This document shows positions 30,308 to 56,821 of a stretch of 60,075 bases of DNA, in pieces. A program made the translations under genes and the position numbers. The notes beneath the pieces are model-generated. The model searched no databases and had not been told where the DNA came from. It worked only from the letters and a program-made list of their open reading frames with translations. The DNA is from a virus (lineage: Duplodnaviria; Heunggongvirae; Uroviricota; Caudoviricetes). The stretch is from the IMG/VR virus record IMGVR_UViG_3300024259_001450, positions 1 to 60,075 of that record; one strand, 5' to 3'. How positions within the stretch are numbered: the first letter of the stretch is position 1; each line of letters opens with the position of its first letter.

Positions 30308-30509
30308 TAATTTCGAAAAGTTGGCTGCTAATTGGGACGATCAACCCAATTTCCATACTCCTAGATATCAAAAGGAGCAAGGGCAATATATGTACTATGC
30401 AGGCGGCGATGGGAGTCCTGATGGCGAGGACGAAATCGAAAAACGATGGGGCAAGGATAAGAAGAAAAAGAAAAAACGAAGAAAGAATAAAAAGAAGCAT
30501 AAGGAGTGA
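30288..30509 (+). CDS. Small protein with a highly basic C-terminus
   Basis: Ends KDKKKKKKRRKNKKKHKE; overlaps both neighbours in operon style. Confidence 0.55.
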   Translation: MKIIKTNNFEKLAANWDDQPNFHTPRYQKEQGQYMYYAGGDGSPDGEDEIEKRWGKDKKKKKKRRKNKKKHKE

Positions 30510-33265
30510 TGTTCCCAAATCAACAATTATTAACTCTGGTTGTGACCAATAATAGCACATTCGTAGAAGGTGTTATTAAATCAGAGGTTTACAAGGGTCT
30601 TAAAAAAACACTGCGTTTTCAGCCAGAAGATGCGTTTTTTAAAGCTAAACACATCAAAAGCAAAACTAATTGGCAATGGGATGGATTTGTCTACTTAATT
30701 TGTCGCAGTAAAGGGTACTGTAAGTGTGAAATCAAAAAAGATGGTGTCCATTTTCCAACAGGACTATACAGTAGAGTTGTAAAGTTCTTTAAAGATAACT
30801 CTATTCCATATAACACATTAGACAAGAGACACATGCCAGATAAAGATTTGTCATTAGACATGTCTGGAGAATGTGAATATAGGGACTATCAAGAAAAGTT
30901 CGTTAATGCATGTGCGGAGCGAGAAAGAGGTTTGGGACAAGCGTGTACTGGTAGTGGAAAAACTTTTATGGGGGCGAAATTAATTCAGATGCTAGGGGTT
31001 GCTCCGTTTATATTCTATGTTCCCTCAATTGATTTATTGAAACAAACAAAAGATGAATTTGAAAGATTCTTATCCAAAAATGGGAAAAAAGCCAAAATAG
31101 GTATGATTGGCGACGGTGTTTTTGATCCTCAAGATATTACCATAATGACAATTCAGACTGCTGTTACTGCTTGTGGTCTTGAGTATGTCAAATATGATGA
31201 GGAAGACAAGAATAAAAGCGACCACACACTAGATGAGAAGCGTAGAGAAATTCTGGATTTAGTTATGTCGGCTAAAGGTATCATTTGTGATGAATGTATC
31301 ACCGGAGATTCTATTGTTTTTGTTAAAAAGTATGGATATGTAAAAACGGAAGAGTTAAAAAACTTTATTGGGGAGGAGATACTTAGTTTTAATGGTACTA
31401 GTGTTGTGTGGGAAAAGATCACATGTTTTATGGATAAAGGAAAAAGAAATTTAATAGAAATTAAGTTTAATTCCGGAAAAAAAATAAAATGCACAAAAAA
31501 TCATTTGATAAAAACCAGAAAGGGATGGATTCAAGCGGGAAATTTGAAAAAGAAAGATTTAGTTTTATCTGTTGTAAATGCGGATGCGGAAAAAAGATTG
31601 ATGTTAGCGGAAGAAGTCCAAGCAAATATCCAAAATACATTCTTGGACACCAGATTAAAAAGAGAAATAAAGATCAGTGGAGAGAAATCTTTAAAAGGCT
31701 TAATCAGGACGCTCCACTCTGTCAGTGTGGATGTGGGAAGAAAGTTGCATTGCGATATAAAACTTTGGAATCTTTTATCAAAAACAAAGGTAATAAAAAA
31801 TATAGAAAATATATTTATGGGCATGATAAAAGACCAAGCGAATGGGGACTTGAACTTAATTTACAAGAAAAACAGTCAATTTTTGGGACTCTTCTTGGAG
31901 ATTCTTCAATGTGCTTTCCAAGTACGAGAAGTAAAAACCCAAGATTGTCATGTAATCATGGATTGGTTCAAAAAAAATGGTCTGAACATAAATCATCGTT
32001 TTTACATAGATTGTCTCCATATGGAAGAATATATAAAAACGCTGGGTATGGCGAAGAAAGTATTTCTTTCCATACAAGATGCTTGCCGTGTCTTCATGAA
32101 ATATATAAATATATGTATGTTAACAACAAAAAGATTGTTAATCAAAAATGGCTTGATGGTATCGGAGAAATTGGATTGGCGTGGTGGATATGCGATGATG
32201 GAAGCAATAACAATGGATTGCTTAGATTCCACACAGAAGGATACTCTCTTGAAGAAAATAAACTCATTTCACAGTGGTTTTGCAGAAAATATGGAGATGT
32301 TTGTATTAGACCATCTAAGGGAAAATACTATTATATTGAATGTAGAGCAAAAACTACTAGAAAAATATTTGAAATTGTCTCAAAACATATTCCAGGGTGC
32401 ATGTCTTACAAAATACGATGAAATCGTATCTATTGTAGATATCGATAAAGACAATGTTTACGACATTACAGTAGAAAATACCAATTGTTTTTTTGCCAAT
32501 GGCTTACTAGTTCATAATTGTCAGCATTGGGCCTCTAAGACGTGCCAGGTGATTTCTGACTATTCTGTGTCGGCTCGTTACAAGTATGGTTTTAGTGCCA
32601 CTGTTTATCGAGACAAGAATGATGATATCCTTATCGATTCGTGTTTTGGTAAAGTAATTCAAAATATCACTGCTTCTTATCTAATTGATAGGGGGTATTT
32701 AGTCCCCCCAACTATTAATTTTGTGCCCATAGGTAAAGGGAATACCAATGGTCGTACATATCAAACAATTTATAAAAATCATATAGTTAATAACACAGAA
32801 AGAAATAACTGTATTGCGAATGTGGCTGCTGGTTTTGAAAAACAAGGTATGACTACTCTTATATTGGTTAGACAAATTTCACATGGAAAAATATTAGAAA
32901 AATTAATTCCAGATAGTTATTTCATACATGGAACACACTCAAGTAAACAGAGAAAGAAGCATTTAGACCTAATGCGTTCGGAAAAAGCACCAGTTACTAT
33001 CGCTAGTACGATTTTTGATGAGGGGATAGATTGCAGACCATTAAATGCTTTGATTCTAGCAGGATCAGGAAAAAGTCAGACTAGAGCGTTACAAAGAATT
33101 GGCAGAACGCTAAGGCCATATACGGATGAATTCGGTAATAAGAAGCTCTTTTCTACTGTGGTAGACTTTGTGGATAAGTATAAGTACCTACAAAGTCATA
33201 GCAAAAAAAGAAGAGAGATATACGAAACAGAGCCAAGATTCACCGTCAAAGAATTGAAGGTATAA
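30506..33265 (+). CDS. Superfamily 2 (UvsW/ResIII-like) DNA helicase containing an intein
   Basis: Q motif YRDYQ, Walker A ACTGSGKT, Walker B ICDE-[intein]-CQH, FSAT, IFDEGIDC, QRIGRTLR. Confidence 0.92.
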   Translation: MMFPNQQLLTLVVTNNSTFVEGVIKSEVYKGLKKTLRFQPEDAFFKAKHIKSKTNWQWDGFVYLICRSKGYCKCEIKKDGVHFPTGLYSRVVKFFKDNSIPYNTLDKRHMPDKDLSLDMSGECEYRDYQEKFVNACAERERGLGQACTGSGKTFMGAKLIQMLGVAPFIFYVPSIDLLKQTKDEFERFLSKNGKKAKIGMIGDGVFDPQDITIMTIQTAVTACGLEYVKYDEEDKNKSDHTLDEKRREILDLVMSAKGIICDECITGDSIVFVKKYGYVKTEELKNFIGEEILSFNGTSVVWEKITCFMDKGKRNLIEIKFNSGKKIKCTKNHLIKTRKGWIQAGNLKKKDLVLSVVNADAEKRLMLAEEVQANIQNTFLDTRLKREIKISGEKSLKGLIRTLHSVSVDVGRKLHCDIKLWNLLSKTKVIKNIENIFMGMIKDQANGDLNLIYKKNSQFLGLFLEILQCAFQVREVKTQDCHVIMDWFKKNGLNINHRFYIDCLHMEEYIKTLGMAKKVFLSIQDACRVFMKYINICMLTTKRLLIKNGLMVSEKLDWRGGYAMMEAITMDCLDSTQKDTLLKKINSFHSGFAENMEMFVLDHLRENTIILNVEQKLLEKYLKLSQNIFQGACLTKYDEIVSIVDIDKDNVYDITVENTNCFFANGLLVHNCQHWASKTCQVISDYSVSARYKYGFSATVYRDKNDDILIDSCFGKVIQNITASYLIDRGYLVPPTINFVPIGKGNTNGRTYQTIYKNHIVNNTERNNCIANVAAGFEKQGMTTLILVRQISHGKILEKLIPDSYFIHGTHSSKQRKKHLDLMRSEKAPVTIASTIFDEGIDCRPLNALILAGSGKSQTRALQRIGRTLRPYTDEFGNKKLFSTVVDFVDKYKYLQSHSKKRREIYETEPRFTVKELKV
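31295..32518 (+). mobile_element. Intein (408 aa) in the helicase Walker B motif
   Basis: Block A CITGDSIV, block B CTKNHLI, blocks F/G VYDITVENTNCFFANGLLVHN, followed by Cys+1. Confidence 0.93.
31489..32421 (+). CDS. LAGLIDADG-type homing endonuclease with two CxCGCG zinc-binding repeats, nested out of frame inside the helicase intein
   Basis: SIFGTLLGDSS and GLAWWICDDGS LAGLIDADG helices, LRFHTEGYSLEEN, terminal IPGCMSYKI. Repeats CKCGCG..YILGH and CQCGCG..YIYGH. Frame is -1 relative to the helicase. Confidence 0.85.
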   Translation: MHKKSFDKNQKGMDSSGKFEKERFSFICCKCGCGKKIDVSGRSPSKYPKYILGHQIKKRNKDQWREIFKRLNQDAPLCQCGCGKKVALRYKTLESFIKNKGNKKYRKYIYGHDKRPSEWGLELNLQEKQSIFGTLLGDSSMCFPSTRSKNPRLSCNHGLVQKKWSEHKSSFLHRLSPYGRIYKNAGYGEESISFHTRCLPCLHEIYKYMYVNNKKIVNQKWLDGIGEIGLAWWICDDGSNNNGLLRFHTEGYSLEENKLISQWFCRKYGDVCIRPSKGKYYYIECRAKTTRKIFEIVSKHIPGCMSYKIR

Positions 33266-33342: not shown

Positions 33343-34236
33343 ATGATCCAAGAAGATAAAATTGAAGATTTATTGGTTGGTGCTGTTAAAACAGCTAAGA
33401 AAAAGACAGCCAGAAAAAGTCCAAAAGAGATTTTGGCAAACAATACGTACACCGTTAAAAACTCTAAAGTAGAGAAAGAAAGCGGTGCCGAATTGGTAGA
33501 TTTTTCTGAAAGGAAAAGAACATATCAACCTAAATCTGACGACTTGCTTGAATGGAGTAATAGAGATTTCTCTCTATACATTAAAAATAAATATCGAAAA
33601 AGATATTCTTCTCATTGGAGTCCATCTATACCGTCTATCACATTGCGACTCAATAATATCAAAGAGGTTATTGATGATTTGGTAGGTTTCTGTGACAACA
33701 TAACTTTCAAAGACTATATAGATTTCTTTTTCTCTGAATGGGCAGATTATTGGCGTTCAAAGAATAAAGGAAAAGTCTTGTATCTAACTGTTTTTTATGA
33801 TAAGCAATCGGTAAAAGATTTTGCATCAAAATATGACTATCAATCCAGTGTAAAAAACTATTTGAATGATAATAAGACTGAAGCGGATTCGCCTAAGATG
33901 TTATCGCTTTCTAATAAAATGATGGAACAGTCCCATTTGCTTGGGATATCTAATTTGGTTGAAGAATATGGTATCATTTTGTCTGCCAATTGGCTAATAT
34001 ATAAACGTAATTATGACGGCGATGATGTTATAAAACAGATGCATAAAGCATTATTGTCGTTACACAAAAAAAAGATATTGTCAAAAGCTATCGAAGCTAC
34101 TGAGAAATATTCGCCTTATCCAAGTCGGTTTTTGTTTAAGGACATTAATTCTCTTGGTGTTGATATAGTATGCAATATAGATTGGGTAGATTCACGAGAA
34201 TGTTTGGATTTTCTAAAGGAGCTACATGGAAAATGA
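33343..34236 (+). CDS. Hypothetical protein
   Basis: 297-aa ORF with an upstream GAGGAG; no recognised motif. Confidence 0.6.
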   Translation: MIQEDKIEDLLVGAVKTAKKKTARKSPKEILANNTYTVKNSKVEKESGAELVDFSERKRTYQPKSDDLLEWSNRDFSLYIKNKYRKRYSSHWSPSIPSITLRLNNIKEVIDDLVGFCDNITFKDYIDFFFSEWADYWRSKNKGKVLYLTVFYDKQSVKDFASKYDYQSSVKNYLNDNKTEADSPKMLSLSNKMMEQSHLLGISNLVEEYGIILSANWLIYKRNYDGDDVIKQMHKALLSLHKKKILSKAIEATEKYSPYPSRFLFKDINSLGVDIVCNIDWVDSRECLDFLKELHGK

Positions 34237-34754
34237 AAAAGTTTGAAAAAAGAGCAACCTTAAATGAGAGTATCAGAAGTCGTCAAGTTCATTTGATCGA
34301 TGAGCAAGGCAAAGATCACGGTAAAATAACGCGAGAACAAGCCTTGGATTTGGCCGCTACAAGAGAACTTGATTTGTGGCAAGTCAATACAGATGATGTT
34401 CCTATCTGCAAATTGGTCGATTATGGTAAAATGATGTACGACAAGGCCAAAAAAGCCAAAGCGAATAAACATCAACATAAGCACGTTTCTGTGAAAGAAA
34501 TAAGAACTAGATATAAAACTGATACTCATGATTTACAAAGGAAGCATAAAAAGGTAGCAGAGTTCATCAAAGAAGGTCATAAGGTCAATTACCGCATGAA
34601 GATAAGAGGTCGTGAACGTCTTATGTGGAAAGAGGCTTTTATCAAATTCAATGAGGCTTTGGAAGATTTTGCAGATATAGCTACTTGGAGTCCTCCAAAA
34701 AAGGACGAAGGAAAGAATGCTAATATCGTAGTGGTTTTGAAACCTAAAAAATAG
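34233..34754 (+). CDS. infC: Translation initiation factor IF-3
   Basis: LNESIRSRQVHLIDEQGKDHG..EQALDLA..LDLWQV..PICKLVDYGKMMY..VKEIR..HDLQRK..FIKEGHKV..IRGRE. Start placed at the ATGA overlap at 34233. Confidence 0.92.
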   Translation: MKKFEKRATLNESIRSRQVHLIDEQGKDHGKITREQALDLAATRELDLWQVNTDDVPICKLVDYGKMMYDKAKKAKANKHQHKHVSVKEIRTRYKTDTHDLQRKHKKVAEFIKEGHKVNYRMKIRGRERLMWKEAFIKFNEALEDFADIATWSPPKKDEGKNANIVVVLKPKK

Positions 34755-34762
34755 TTTAAATC

Positions 34763-35818
34763 ATGAAAACAGATTTGACACAAGAAGAACATCTCGAACT
34801 GTTCGGCAGGATGGCTACAAAGGATTTCAATGCAGAAATCGATGCGTTGTTGCGCATTCGTAGTCCACTTCTGTATGTTACAACTAATGAAGAGAGGCGT
34901 TTATTAGATTATTTTAAGCATCTATCCGCAGCTAAAGGATATCGTGTATATTCATGGGATTGTTTTGTGGGACTGATAGATGTTATGACAGGGCAACCAA
35001 CAGATGATTTTGTTGTGGAAATTCCAACAGGAGAAGAGGATGACGATTCTTCTGGTTATGATATGACAGACCCAACAATGATCTTGCAGTTTTTGCATAG
35101 CAGATTTTTGGCGAATCAATCTAATGCTAAAGCTATGAAGTCTTCTGGATGTCGAGGGGAAATTTTTATTCTGTCAGATTACTATTACTACTTTGACCCT
35201 TTAGACTATAGGCCAGATGTAGAAAGAGCATTCAAGCAGATTGCACAAATAACTTCTCCTACTACAGTTGTTGTTACTGGGCCTGTCATAACTTTGACTC
35301 CCTCTCTAGAAAGTGATTTTGTTGTTTTAGATTTTCCTTATCCTAATGAGGATGAAATAGCTGATGTTCTAGATCGACTTGTCGAATCTGTGTTGAAGCA
35401 GGTAAAGGGAACTTCTTCCATCAAAAAAGAGTTAGAGAAGAACAGAGATCAACTGATTCGAGCAGCGGTTGGTTTGACGTTAAAAGAAATAAAAACAGCA
35501 TTTTCAAAATCTATAGCCCAAGATAATAGATTGGATGTAAAATACGTATTAGAAGAAAAGAAACAGATTATACGAAAAAAGGGCTACCTAGAATACTTTG
35601 AACCTAAAGTGACCATTGATGATGTCGGCGGTCTTCAAAATATGATTGATTGGTTTAAGGTCAGAGAAATAGCACTTTCTCCGCAAGCAATAGAATATGG
35701 GTTGAAGGTGCCGAGGGGTGTTCTTATTATAGGCATGCCAGGTTGTGTTCTCGAAGATACAAAGATTAAAATAAGGAAAATTTCCAAAGAAGGAAAATTA
35801 AAATTATATAAGAAATAA
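34763..35818 (+). CDS. Ycf46-like AAA ATPase, N-terminal half fused to a 24-aa split-intein N fragment
   Basis: EEKKQIIRKKGYLEYF..DDVGGLQNM..PRGVLIIGMPG, then CVLEDTKIKIRKISKEGKLKLYKK-stop. Confidence 0.88.
   Translation: MKTDLTQEEHLELFGRMATKDFNAEIDALLRIRSPLLYVTTNEERRLLDYFKHLSAAKGYRVYSWDCFVGLIDVMTGQPTDDFVVEIPTGEEDDDSSGYDMTDPTMILQFLHSRFLANQSNAKAMKSSGCRGEIFILSDYYYYFDPLDYRPDVERAFKQIAQITSPTTVVVTGPVITLTPSLESDFVVLDFPYPNEDEIADVLDRLVESVLKQVKGTSSIKKELEKNRDQLIRAAVGLTLKEIKTAFSKSIAQDNRLDVKYVLEEKKQIIRKKGYLEYFEPKVTIDDVGGLQNMIDWFKVREIALSPQAIEYGLKVPRGVLIIGMPGCVLEDTKIKIRKISKEGKLKLYKK
35744..35815 (+). mobile_element. Split intein N fragment (IntN, 24 aa)
   Basis: Block A-like CVLEDTKI directly after the first half of Walker A (GMPG). 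Confidence 0.85.
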
Positions 35819-35862
35819 TATATAGTTCTTAGTCGGGGAAACCAATTATAGGAGCATATGTT

Positions 35863-36750
35863 ATGGAAAAAGAATTTGCTAGAAATTGTCCTAAATGTAG
35901 TAAAATTTTACGGTATAAAAACAAGAAAAATCTTGATAAAGCGAATAAGTTAAATAGACGATGCAGATCATGTGCGTGGAAGAATAATAGCAAAAAGCCA
36001 GAAATGATACAAATGTACAAAAAAAGAAGTGAAAAATACAAAGGTTCTGGTAATCCGTTTTATGGACATACACATACAGAAGAGTCAATAAAAAAAATGG
36101 GAGAGAATAAAAACTATGATATATATAAAACTAAAGATTTTAGAGTCAAAATATCTAAATTAACTTCAGGCAAGAATAATCCTATGTATGGTAAAAACTG
36201 TTATGATGTTTGGGTAGAAAAATATGGTCAATTTGAGGCAGATAGAAGGCAAAAAGAATTAAACAGTGTGAGGTCGAAAAATGTTTCTGGTAAAAAAAAT
36301 CCTATGTATGGTAGATTACCGCCAAAAGGGTCTGGAGCAGGATGGAGCGGGTGGTATAAGGGCTGGTTTTTCAGGTCTTTACGAGAATTATCTTACATGA
36401 TAAATGTAATTGAAAAAAAACAGTTAAAATGGAAGAGCGCTGAAAAGAATATAAATATAAAATATTTAGATTATCTTGGCAATAACAGAACTTATAGACC
36501 GGATTTTTTAATAAATGATAAAATATTAGTAGAAGTCAAACCTAAGAAATTAATGGAAACGCCCAATAATAGATTAAAGAAGATCGCAGCCATAAAATTT
36601 TGTGAAGATAATAATTTAGAATATAAAATGGTTGATGTTAAAATAATTGCAAAAGAAAATCTTATTAAAATGCACAATGATAATTTAATAAGATTTATAG
36701 ATAAATGGGAAAGTGTTTTTCAAAATAAATATTTAAAAAGAGATAAATGA
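35863..36750 (+). CDS. Free-standing putative homing endonuclease (Zn ribbon, NUMOD3-like repeats, TnsA-like PD-(D/E)XK domain)
   Basis: CPKC..CRSC; GSGNPFYGHTHTEES, GKNNPMYGK, GKKNPMYGR; FRSLRE..YRPDFLINDKILVEVKP; own RBS AGGAG. Confidence 0.82.
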   Translation: MEKEFARNCPKCSKILRYKNKKNLDKANKLNRRCRSCAWKNNSKKPEMIQMYKKRSEKYKGSGNPFYGHTHTEESIKKMGENKNYDIYKTKDFRVKISKLTSGKNNPMYGKNCYDVWVEKYGQFEADRRQKELNSVRSKNVSGKKNPMYGRLPPKGSGAGWSGWYKGWFFRSLRELSYMINVIEKKQLKWKSAEKNINIKYLDYLGNNRTYRPDFLINDKILVEVKPKKLMETPNNRLKKIAAIKFCEDNNLEYKMVDVKIIAKENLIKMHNDNLIRFIDKWESVFQNKYLKRDK

Positions 36751-37124
36751 TGGATACAAACAAAGAAATTGAAATAACTATAAAAGATTTTTTTGAACTT
36801 TCACAAAAAGATGGTGGTGAATATCAAATATATACTCCAGACGGATGGCAAGATATTGGGTTTTTGGTATCAGATCATAAAGAATGTTATAATATAATTA
36901 CACAAAATGGATTAGAGTTGGGGTGTTCGTTTTCTCATCAATTATTGACTCAAGATGGTTGGAAAACAGTTGAAGAAATTGATGTACAAAATGATAAGAT
37001 ACAAACTGTTTTTGGATTTGAGAATGTTGTTGCAAAAGAATATCTTGGTTGTAAAGACACCTATGATATAAACGTTGATGGTGGAAAAAATAGATATTAT
37101 TCAAGCGGAATAGTGTCACATAAT
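36747..37124 (+). mobile_element. Split intein C fragment (IntC, about 126 aa)
   Basis: IYTPDGW, block B LGCSFSHQLLTQDGW, blocks F/G TYDINVDGGKNRYYSSGIVSHN/C. Confidence 0.88.
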
Positions 37125-37796
37125 TGTGGTAAAAGTCTAACCGCGAAAGCGATTGCTTCATTGTACCAGTTGCCTCTTTTAAGATTGGATTTTGGTAATT
37201 TGTTTGGCAGTAAGATGGGGGAATCAGAGAGGCGTGTTAGAGAGGCTATGAGGCTCACAGAGGCTTTGGCTCCTGCTATACTGTGGATTGACGAGTTAGA
37301 GAAGGCGTTGTCTGGTGTGCAATCTAGTGACCAATCTGATGGCGGTACAACGGCAAGAGTTATAGCAACTTTTTTAACATGGATGCAAGAAAGGGAATCT
37401 CCTATTATAGCTATTTGCACAGCGAATAGACAAGAGAAATTATTGCCAGAAGTTATGAGGCGATTTAGCGAGATATTCTTTGTGGATTTACCAAGAGAAA
37501 ATGAAAGAGAACAAATTTTTAGAGCATTAATTAGACGAAATAATCGTGATCCTGAAAAGTTTAATCTAAAAAGATTATCTAGGCGTACAGAAAATTACAG
37601 CGGATATGAGATTGAAAAGATAATTGAGAATGCGATGTATAGAGCATGTAACCAAAAATTCAGAGAATTCACGACTAAAGATATTGAAGAAGAGATAGAA
37701 GTTTTTAAACCTCTCTATGATGTTCGGGAGCAGGAGTTTAAGGAAATGAGGGAGTGGGCCGATGGGAGATGTGCCTTTGCTAATACCGATGGATAA
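36747..37796 (+). CDS. Split-intein C fragment fused to the C-terminal half of the AAA ATPase
   Basis: Intein part ends SGIVSHN, then CGKSLTAKAIA (rest of Walker A), Walker B LWIDELEK, sensor CTAN, arginine finger EVMRRF. Confidence 0.9.
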   Translation: MMDTNKEIEITIKDFFELSQKDGGEYQIYTPDGWQDIGFLVSDHKECYNIITQNGLELGCSFSHQLLTQDGWKTVEEIDVQNDKIQTVFGFENVVAKEYLGCKDTYDINVDGGKNRYYSSGIVSHNCGKSLTAKAIASLYQLPLLRLDFGNLFGSKMGESERRVREAMRLTEALAPAILWIDELEKALSGVQSSDQSDGGTTARVIATFLTWMQERESPIIAICTANRQEKLLPEVMRRFSEIFFVDLPRENEREQIFRALIRRNNRDPEKFNLKRLSRRTENYSGYEIEKIIENAMYRACNQKFREFTTKDIEEEIEVFKPLYDVREQEFKEMREWADGRCAFANTDG

Positions 37797-54955: not shown

Positions 54956-56821
54956 ATGAGTAGATTCAGTTACAACCGCAAAAGATTGGAAAAAACTTTC
55001 AATCGTTTATTAGATTTTTACGGCACAATGCCAGACACAGTAGGGTGTATGGATAGTATTAGCAAACCTACTGGTCATGGAGGGTGTGGTGCTTGGTGCT
55101 GTCTAACGCCAGAAACTAGGGTATTTACTGAAAGAGGGTTGATACCTATCAAAGATATAGAAGTCGGTGAAAAAGTATGGACGAGATTGGGATGGAAAAA
55201 AGTAATATCAAAAGCTGATAAACATGTCGATGAAGATATCACAGTTGTAGAAACACGCTATGGTAGAAAAATTAGATTGACAAACGATCATTTGGTATTT
55301 GTCGATGAATTTGGTAGAAAATCTAGGGAAAATGCTAGTGACCCCAAATGGGTAAAAGCAGTAGACTTAATATCAAAAAAATCAAACGACAAGGGCCATT
55401 ACATAATTTTTCCAAAATATAAAAATAATACGAAACAATCTGTGCAAAGTATTAAAATTACAGACTATTTATCAAAATATGAATGCTTTGTTGAAGGGAA
55501 TTTTTGTTTTGCTTCTAAGATCAAAAAAGGAAAAATACTTCCACTATCTATACAGCTAAATTATGATTTTTGTTGGATATTAGGACTATATTTAGCGGAA
55601 GGAACTACTGGAGAGGCTACAACAGAATTCCATATTAGTTCAGATGAAAAAGAAATAAGAAAAAAAATATTATCATTTGCAGAATCTCTTGGTTTATATT
55701 CTTCGTATAGAGTCACGCATGGAAAAAGTTTGAGCGTAAGAGTCTTTTCAAAAGTTTTATCTAAATTATTCAAAAAGATTGGTAACTCTGGTTGTGATAA
55801 AAAACAAATACCACAAAAGTTAATGAAAAAAATAATTAAAGATAAGTTTCTTTTGTCTGGTTTGCACGATGGATATTATGCTGGGGACGGTACGAAGAAG
55901 AAATATGGAAATTTAGAATATTCTATTACAACAACGTCTGAAGAACTATTGTATCAAATATTATTCTTTAATTTTATAGAAAATAAAAATCCAGTATTAT
56001 ATACGCAAAAAAAAGAGAACAGAAAAAGATCATATACATTAAATATCAATTCGGGAAAATATCATGATTATGTAGAAACTGAAGATGATTTTCGCATTCC
56101 TATTAAGAGCGTATCTGTGGAGAAATATATTGGAGATGTATATGATATTGAAGTAGAAGATTCTAATTCTTTTACTACAGTTGCAGGTGAAGTTCATAAT
56201 TGTAAGATACAAAATCCACAATTGCTATATTGCGAGTTCTTGTACGCATTTGACTATATCCTAAAGAATTGGACGGAAGAAGAACTTCTAGTTGTAATCG
56301 AAGAAGCGATCAGAAATTACTTGAAAGACACGCCCACAAAAGGATGTGTATTCTTTGACAGTAAAACCAAAATGTGTAAAATCCACACGCACAGATGTTT
56401 TAACTGTCATTTATATGGCATTATTCCTGATGAGGAATTTACCCCACGACTTGAACGACTTCGTAAAGAGTATTCTGATATCAATGCGATTTTCAAAGAA
56501 CAATGCAAATTAGTTAAAGCAGAAGATGGGGAAAAACTGACAATGAAAATCACAGACAAATGGTGGGAGAAGTTGTCGTCAATCGAGCAACAGCTTGGTA
56601 TCAAAGCCAATATGATTACAGACAAGCCCGGCGGAACGTATCGTACATACCACGATCACTTGTTGATTTATTTATTGCCGGATTATACTTTGGAAAACCT
56701 TTCCGAAGTAAGGAAACATGGGAAACCGGAAGACAAAGAGAAAGTCATAATGACATTAATGGATATTCTTAGTAAGGCTATAAAAGGAATTAAAGATGAT
56801 CCGCAGAGCGAAGATTCTTGA
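54956..56821 (+). CDS. YkgJ-like (CxxCxxCC) Zn/Fe-chelating protein containing an intein
   Basis: Exteins C..GCGAWC/C and GCVFFD..KMCKIHTHRCFNCHLYG; mature protein about 254 aa. Confidence 0.8.
   Translation: MSRFSYNRKRLEKTFNRLLDFYGTMPDTVGCMDSISKPTGHGGCGAWCCLTPETRVFTERGLIPIKDIEVGEKVWTRLGWKKVISKADKHVDEDITVVETRYGRKIRLTNDHLVFVDEFGRKSRENASDPKWVKAVDLISKKSNDKGHYIIFPKYKNNTKQSVQSIKITDYLSKYECFVEGNFCFASKIKKGKILPLSIQLNYDFCWILGLYLAEGTTGEATTEFHISSDEKEIRKKILSFAESLGLYSSYRVTHGKSLSVRVFSKVLSKLFKKIGNSGCDKKQIPQKLMKKIIKDKFLLSGLHDGYYAGDGTKKKYGNLEYSITTTSEELLYQILFFNFIENKNPVLYTQKKENRKRSYTLNINSGKYHDYVETEDDFRIPIKSVSVEKYIGDVYDIEVEDSNSFTTVAGEVHNCKIQNPQLLYCEFLYAFDYILKNWTEEELLVVIEEAIRNYLKDTPTKGCVFFDSKTKMCKIHTHRCFNCHLYGIIPDEEFTPRLERLRKEYSDINAIFKEQCKLVKAEDGEKLTMKITDKWWEKLSSIEQQLGIKANMITDKPGGTYRTYHDHLLIYLLPDYTLENLSEVRKHGKPEDKEKVIMTLMDILSKAIKGIKDDPQSEDS
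55100..56200 (+). mobile_element. Intein (367 aa) with an in-frame LAGLIDADG/DOD endonuclease
   Basis: CLTPETRVFT, RLTNDHLV, WILGLYLAEG, GYYAGDG, VYDIEVEDSNSFTTVAGEVHN/C. Confidence 0.93.

Follow-up and report, generated by a model that had tools for sequence, protein, structure and literature searches.

The first 60 kb of the 188,075-bp IMG/VR virus record IMGVR_UViG_3300024259_001450 (below, the window, all 60,075 nucleotides of it) come from what must be a very large phage, as CheckV puts the completeness of that record at 38%. At 34763-37796 of the window are three co-oriented open reading frames (ORFs), genes 1, 2 and 3, each in its own reading frame. The outer two carry the parts of an AAA+ ATPase, with the candidate N-terminal and C-terminal fragments of a split intein (IntN and IntC) at their facing ends, and the middle one encodes a putative homing endonuclease. 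Gene 1 (34763-35818, 351 amino acids) ends in IIGMPG followed by the tail CVLEDTKIKIRKISKEGKLKLYKK, which is 24 amino acids long, starts with CVLEDT and has nine Lys or Arg and three Asp or Glu residues. Gene 3 (36747-37796, 349 amino acids) opens with 126 amino acids ending in GIVSHN, after which come CGKS, its Cys encoded by TGT at 37125-37127, and the AAA and lid domains. The TGA stop codon of gene 2 overlaps the ATG of gene 3 in an ATGA at 36747-36750; the second ATG of gene 3 (36750), used in the database copy P0001, is an alternative start and would give an IntC of 125 amino acids. In the region of the spacer between genes 1 and 2 no site resembling a terminator was detected. The features are collected in Table 1.

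What is to be made of a P-loop whose two ends are in different genes? The locus is very probably a ‘fractured’ phage gene, in which a class-1 intein interrupts Walker A of a classic-clade AAA+ ATPase and is itself divided, past its beta-strand 2, by a free-standing gene for a homing endonuclease. A sequence-only reading of the window had noticed the division of Walker A, GMPG:CGKS (the colon marking the point of interruption), between two genes, a basic gene 1 tail with nine basic and three acidic residues, an acidic IntC of ~126 residues with blocks B, F and G at the start of gene 3, and between the halves a NUMOD3/TnsA-like nuclease gene with an ATGA overlap. These observations hold. The end of gene 1 and the CGKS of gene 3 bear out the first, and the residue counts agree for a 24-residue IntN; the IntC assignment is upheld by sequence and by invariant residues, and that of the nuclease gene by Pfam hits together with the sequence at 36747-36750.

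Table 1. Features of the three-gene locus, in coordinates of the window (aa, amino acids; RBS, ribosome-binding site; AF2, AlphaFold2)
Feature	Coordinates	Strand	Evidence
N-extein, first 327 aa of AAA+ ATPase (N-terminal domain and GMPG of Walker A)	34763..35743	+	ORF; phrog_8638 19-316; 57% identity to uninterrupted P0042
IntN, 24 aa from Cys1 (TGT 35744-35746), then TAA stop	35744..35818	+	Sequence; length and sequence conserved in 21 clusters; beta-hairpin in model of fused relative
Spacer with nuclease gene's own RBS (AGGAG 35850-35854, 8 nt before ATG)	35819..35862		Sequence
Free-standing putative homing-endonuclease gene, 295 aa: Cys4 zinc ribbon, three NUMOD3 motifs, C-terminal TnsA-like PD-(D/E)xK nuclease	35863..36750	+	Pfam, PHROG, invariant residues, AF2 model
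IntC, 126 aa, blocks B (SxxH), F (D) and G (SHN), net charge ~-12	36747..37124	+	VidaL 6vgv and Cat 6dsl matches; invariant residues
C-extein, 223 aa from Cys+1 (CGKS, rest of Walker A), Walker B, AAA core, lid domain	37125..37796	+	Pfam; phrog_8638 315-537

The divided ATPase and its intein

On the 568 positions of phrog_8638, gene 1 covers 19-316 (E 1e-39) and gene 3 covers 315-537 (E 8e-73), and because these matches abut the two genes encode a single protein in two parts, with one break, in Walker A. Rejoined, the exteins would give a 550-residue AAA+ ATPase with an intact P-loop; the gene 3 part matches the Pfam families AAA (PF00004, E 1.2e-22) and AAA_lid_3 (E 8.2e-7), and phrog_17415, of the terminase large subunit (TerL), matches gene 3 at blocks F and G plus the GKS. 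Uninterrupted homologues of 550-560 amino acids exist, reading GxPG(C/T/S)GKS at the place of the junction; one, P0042, is 57% identical and has GISGCGKS. The contig L007 provides the empty site, an uninterrupted 561-residue orthologue in the gene order of the window: helicase, ~295-residue ORF, initiation factor 3 (IF3), ATPase, ~270-residue ORF and DnaB. With both halves mapping to one family and a syntenic uninterrupted orthologue at hand, the earlier proposal of a fractured AAA ATPase of ~550 residues when rejoined is supported. Its description as ‘Ycf46-like’ fares less well, for the source of the homologues does name a ‘SpoVK/Ycf46/Vps4 family’ but no curated family model claims the protein, the NCBIfam matches of the ATPase being limited to sub-threshold ones to the PAN, CDC48 and FtsH models.

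The host ATPase is common in large phages and is located in the replication module. Its homologues in cultured phages are at most 37% identical and all uninterrupted, and a megablast of the locus against cultured phages gave no match. Directly upstream of the ATPase in the window is a two-domain phage IF3 gene (34170-34754; Pfam IF3_N and IF3_C). The order helicase, ~295-residue ORF, IF3, ATPase is kept in L005, L007, L008 and L019; in L090, where the upstream flank is shorter, just a similar ~170-residue ORF directly upstream of the ATPase is seen.

The split intein is not unique to this phage but is a member of a sizeable metagenomic family. In a search space of 5.8 billion proteins ~40 clusters of 360-390 amino acids match gene 3 from end to end, mostly at 41-57% identity, and ~20 clusters of 330-350 amino acids match gene 1 and share its C-terminal tail. 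Across an alignment of 33 IntC halves, that of the window included, S60 and H63 of block B, D106 of block F and S123, H124 and N125 of block G are invariant. Cys1 is present in 21 of 21 IntN-half clusters, 18 of which have an IntN of exactly 24 amino acids; the family medians are 24 for IntN and 126 for IntC. The +1 residue is a nucleophile in all 44 IntC-bearing halves (Cys in 31, Thr in 12 and Ser in one). All residues of a class-1 intein, namely Cys1, Cys+1, (T/S)xxH of block B, the Asp of block F and the His-Asn of block G, are thus accounted for, and it is from them that we infer the splicing chemistry. The mean net charge is +4.3 for IntN and -10.3 for IntC, of which the first 40 residues have -7.1; such conserved opposite charges are as expected of partners that must find each other.

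Where in the intein does the split fall? The relative L029, described below, has both intein parts in one ORF, and an AF2 model of this fusion, made with an alignment of family members, has the HINT fold at a mean predicted local distance difference test score (pLDDT) of 86.9. IntN is modelled as a beta-hairpin (strands 12-19 and 26-30), a nuclease remnant follows as a low-confidence loop, and the IntC part opens with a strand at 58-62 and its first helix at 63-71. VIA comparison finds many solved inteins at Z 16 to 20, with VidaL, 6vgv, the top structural match at Z 19.8 and a root-mean-square deviation (rmsd) of 1.8 Å over 144 of 145 residues. For the window IntC sequence too 6vgv is the best match (E 2.9e-10, ~30% identity over 119 residues), and the consensus TerL intein Cat (6dsl) comes second at E 2.8e-4. 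IntC residue 7 aligns to position 23 of the 6vgv chain, and as the VidaL IntN has 16 amino acids (PMC13014065) the two IntC starts are 1-2 residues apart, provided that the crystal construct has no added linker. In the modelled fold the split is at the S1 site, after strand beta-2 and before helix alpha-1.

The nuclease and the layouts of related loci

Pfam recognizes two domains in the 295-residue product of gene 2, NUMOD3 at 42.9 bits (cut-off 20.4) and Tn7_TnsA-like_N, PF08722, at 30.2 bits (cut-off 26.5), and most of its 1268 homologues at E <= 1e-3, which are mostly ~300 amino acids long, have the same two. The zinc-ribbon residues C9, C12, C34 and C37, together with E175, D214, E224 and K226, are invariant among 47 homologues. 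An AF2 model (pLDDT 88.6) has a C-terminal alpha/beta core, for which the best VIA structural match is the catalytic domain of TnsA (Z 7.5, rmsd 3.1 Å, 109 residues), with I-Bth0305I at Z 4.9 and Vsr at Z 4.6. Though modest, the TnsA score agrees with the Pfam TnsA-like hit above cut-off. Foldseek gave no match to the model at E <= 0.001, and phmmer of the protein against PDB sequences gave none either. A Vsr-like or EDxHD identity was considered for gene 2 and rejected; its core has no conserved His in the 47 homologues, and the Vsr-type Z is below that of TnsA.

Like TnsA and PD-(D/E)xK homing enzymes such as I-Ssp6803I, gene 2 has the TnsA-like domain with invariant E, D and ExK. Unlike TnsA, it is without the TnsA C-terminal domain and without transposon context, and its core is fused to a zinc ribbon and NUMOD3 DNA-binding motifs, the latter typical of GIY-YIG and HNH homing enzymes. 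Campylobacter phage CPt10 (NC_027996.1:57667-60642, our L086) has a distant homologue, 26% identical, which is annotated there as an endonuclease disrupting a P-loop/PhoH-like coding sequence relative to phage CP220, a setting which fits a homing lifestyle by analogy. In T4-like coliphages the nuclease core adjoins, or lies within, annotations of the terminase large subunit.

Among the viral and metagenome contig matches listed, the metagenome ones being mostly intein-less alleles, 11 loci with DNA context, the window included, could be tallied by layout, a small set that is not representative. The three-gene layout is found in six of them (the window, L005, L006, L019, L088 and L090), and its recurrence in syntenic phage contigs supports the earlier view of a fractured gene with a nuclease gene between split-intein halves. 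Four (L008, L024, L087 and L141) are split without a nuclease gene, the halves being 7 to 141 bp apart, and all four gaps still include a stop and a start codon. The 52-bp gap of L008 holds a stop codon, GGAG and a new ATG, this Shine-Dalgarno GGAG being seen directly only there, and the gap of L024 still resembles the 3′ end of the nuclease gene. The remaining locus, L029 (IMGVR_UViG_3300035698_031462, L029:3020-3580), has a single ORF that joins a 24-residue IntN, 22 further residues and a normal IntC start. Those 22 in-frame residues, YSPDFIVDGKVLVEVKPK, match the PD-ExK strand of the nuclease, which in the window reads YRPDFLINDKILVEVKPK, and so L029 looks like a split intein re-fused in frame by an internal deletion of the nuclease gene. 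Together with the empty site of L007, the alleles form the life cycle of a fractured gene: empty, split with nuclease, split without it, and re-fused around a remnant.

Proposed mechanism and its rivals

How might a whole ATPase be made from such a locus? The two halves would be translated separately, translation of the IntC half probably being coupled to that of the nuclease gene via the ATGA overlap. The basic IntN hairpin of 24 residues would dock on the acidic IntC of 126, completing the HINT fold, and Cys1, the Ser and His of block B, the Asp of block F, the terminal Asn and Cys+1 would then perform protein trans-splicing, yielding the 550-residue ATPase with its P-loop intact. The nuclease, whose activity and target we infer, would cut nuclease-free or intein-free alleles of co-infecting relatives and so spread the element by homing. 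As a whole this is a real and probably active trans-splicing mobile element.

Are the intein parts perhaps no more than a dimerisation device, the ATPase halves forming a non-covalent complex without ligation, or IntC merely cleaving itself? Split-intein halves bind tightly, charge complementarity alone would support association, and ligation here is a prediction. Yet a P-loop cut between its GxxG and GKS parts is hard to square with ATP binding unless the backbone is continuous, and residues that only splicing needs are conserved (Cys1 in 21 of 21 clusters, the terminal Asn, and a +1 nucleophile in 44 of 44 halves), which makes this quite improbable. A dead ATPase gene, broken by insertion of a selfish nuclease, with the intein-like pieces as decaying remnants, has a precedent of a kind, as homing endonucleases do disrupt phage genes, the annotated P-loop gene of CPt10 among them. 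We consider it very unlikely here: ~40 IntC-half and ~20 IntN-half clusters at 40-57% identity have kept open frames, catalytic residues and the 24-residue IntN, the exteins of split alleles are as conserved as in uninterrupted homologues, and alleles that have lost the nuclease gene are still split. The sequence-only reading had itself named what would overturn it, removal of the middle gene as an RNA intron that rejoins a contiguous intein. Related nuclease genes have been found within group I introns (Dassa 2009, PMC2677866), and a nuclease gene within a self-splicing intron, or one bypassed in translation, would leave a contiguous intein to splice in cis. However, an Rfam scan of 35500-37300 found no family at E <= 0.1, though an unmodelled intron could escape Rfam; the genes are in three different frames, gene 1 having its TAA stop and gene 3 an ATG of its own; and the four nuclease-free relatives, with gaps of 7 to 141 bp, are still split and retain stop and start codons. 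With the split still present in nuclease-free loci, an intron is strongly disfavoured, and a contiguous intein obtained by either route is scarcely credible.

Several points nevertheless weigh against trans-splicing followed by homing. The Pfam intein model scores IntC alone at 20 bits, under its cut-off of 35.8, which is to be expected as IntC is a fragment. The HINT model is of the relative L029 and not of the two pieces in the window. All the sequences are metagenomic and splicing is a prediction. For the nuclease, the match to the TnsA fold is modest (Z 7.5) and cleavage activity is putative; moreover, there is no second copy of its gene in the 188-kb record.

Mobility, known relatives and further inteins

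In a FastTree of 101 C-exteins, of which 37 belong to split and 64 to uninterrupted alleles (those truncated or with a second intein being excluded), the two kinds are interleaved throughout; parsimony counts 24 changes, and well-supported branches force at least 10 of them. The split P0024 and the uninterrupted P0116 have C-exteins identical at 237 of 240 residues, with Cys and Thr respectively at +1, a near-identity that implies very recent gain or precise loss of the intein. Judged from such sequence comparisons, the intein-bearing element is mobile. Classic AAA proteins have Thr at the +1-equivalent position of Walker A. Among P0042-P0188, the 104 uninterrupted homologues have Cys there in 55 cases, Thr in 28, Ser in seven, and Ala, Gly, Val or Asp in 14; that Cys outnumbers Thr in these intein-less alleles may be a footprint of past occupancy. 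The 14 with a non-nucleophile could not support splicing.

Does the intein extend beyond this ATPase? In phmmer searches of IntC against 1.84 billion representatives there were 619 matches at E <= 1e-3 and 57 at E <= 1e-10. The Pfam assignments of 70 matches that open with an IntC-like domain include AAA (17), terminase large subunit (13-16) and PhoH (6), and also ClpB-like, PIF1, DnaB, RecA, clamp-loader and PolA proteins; the consensus after the IntC-like domain is xGKT. Genomic context was checked for the AAA family, and the matches in other hosts may include truncated gene calls. These matches suggest a clade of long-IntC inteins that favours P-loops. The larger proposition is evenly poised in our estimation: an undescribed large clade of S1-type split inteins that would move between the P-loops of unrelated phage nucleoside triphosphatases, cycle between split with nuclease, split, and re-fused cis forms, and supply dozens of natural IntNs of 24 amino acids, including ones with Thr+1 and Ser+1.

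Four naturally atypically split inteins are named in the literature covered, these being AceL TerL (IntN of 25 amino acids), GOS TerL (37), VidaL (16) and PolB16 OarG (15) (PMC13014065, PMC10189870), and the shortage of further natural candidates has been remarked on (PMC13014065). The same work assigns the S1 split site, after beta-2, to VidaL and PolB16, and to the TerL inteins the S2 site, after helix alpha-1. VidaL (6vgv/6vgw), the best match in both sequence and structure, shares with the intein of the window its S1 split, Cys1 and SHN end. Its crystal construct ends SHA:SGK, which suggests that VidaL also sits at a P-loop-like G:xGK site. It differs in its IntN, which at 16 amino acids is 8 shorter than the one here, where the hairpin is longer; in sequence, identity being just ~30%; in the Ser+1 of its construct where there is Cys+1 here; and in host, which here is a classic AAA+ ATPase. 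Its splicing has been characterised experimentally, that of the window intein being predicted from residues. AceL TerL, GOS TerL and Cat (6dsl) are alike in the short IntN (25 to 37 amino acids), long IntC, phage P-loop ATPase host and fractured-gene layout, but the TerL inteins, which are in terminase P-loops, have the S2 split, as against alpha-1 lying inside IntC here, and another host gene. Inteins with such short IntNs, for which the sequence-only reading had pointed to the TerL types, are known but rare; the closest characterised relative is VidaL and not a TerL intein.

The layout has a precedent in the fractured genes of Dassa 2009 (PMC2677866), where the N-terminal half of a host gene with IntN, a nuclease gene with its own expression signals, and IntC with the C-terminal host half follow each other, mainly in phages and at conserved enzyme motifs. 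However, the eight enzyme types there do not include an AAA ATPase, the split is the canonical one with long IntN and short IntC, and the nucleases are GIY-YIG or Vsr-like, not NUMOD3 with a TnsA-like PD-(D/E)xK domain as here. In the literature covered, from which subscription papers are largely missing so that a prior description is possible, neither a split intein in a classic AAA+ ATPase nor a NUMOD3/TnsA-like nuclease in a fractured gene has been described. The suggestion that the combination of host gene and nuclease is new consequently stands as far as that literature goes, though the locus is not unique but has a family. What is new here is the host gene, the nuclease partner, the 24-residue hairpin IntN and the large natural family, and not a new principle.

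Natural split inteins are highly valued when their IntN can be made by peptide synthesis, and the literature cited names four; the locus and its ~40 relatives are ready-made candidates, optimised by nature, with IntNs of 24 amino acids and Cys, Thr or Ser as the +1 nucleophile. The alleles also bear on the origin of atypical split sites, for which a nuclease gene would land at S1 and not at the canonical insertion point, and on whether the splitting of inteins is reversible. The re-fused L029 allele and the almost identical P0024 and P0116, which show the element entering or leaving host genes that hardly differ, are the most interesting by-products.

Many of the relatives (P0004, P0008, P0010, P0028; L024:4001-6418; L141:1264-1926) have a second intein, at Walker B, APC:...HN:CILW(I/V/A)DE(I/V)EK, which the ATPase gene of the window is without. 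It is a contiguous mini-intein in some and split in L029 and L141, in the former by a free-standing HNH-like gene (L029:4078-4965); in L024 it has ~440 amino acids, and the related cluster representative of the same length, P0309 (851 amino acids), has Pfam LAGLIDADG_3. A distant ATPase homologue at L032:2374-4914 has an unrelated contiguous intein of ~280 amino acids, with an HNH-like motif, at the same Walker A position (GPPG:C...HN:TGKS).

The phage itself has other inteins. Outside the window (L004:1-2295, corresponding to ~169740-172035) is a second fractured gene, IMPDH/GMP-reductase-like, with a canonically split intein whose IntN of ~90 amino acids starts with CFVAGT and whose IntC of ~40 ends in VVHN:CGYP, and with a gene for a 237-residue HNH-type endonuclease between the halves; it resembles the IMPDH-1 case of Dassa 2009 (PMC2677866). 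Within the window the upstream helicase gene (30506-33265, 919 amino acids) has a contiguous intein between DEC and QHW (Pfam Intein_splicing and Hint), and with a further intein signal at 55205-56200, in a 621-residue ORF (54956-56821), the 188-kb record has at least four intein-bearing genes.

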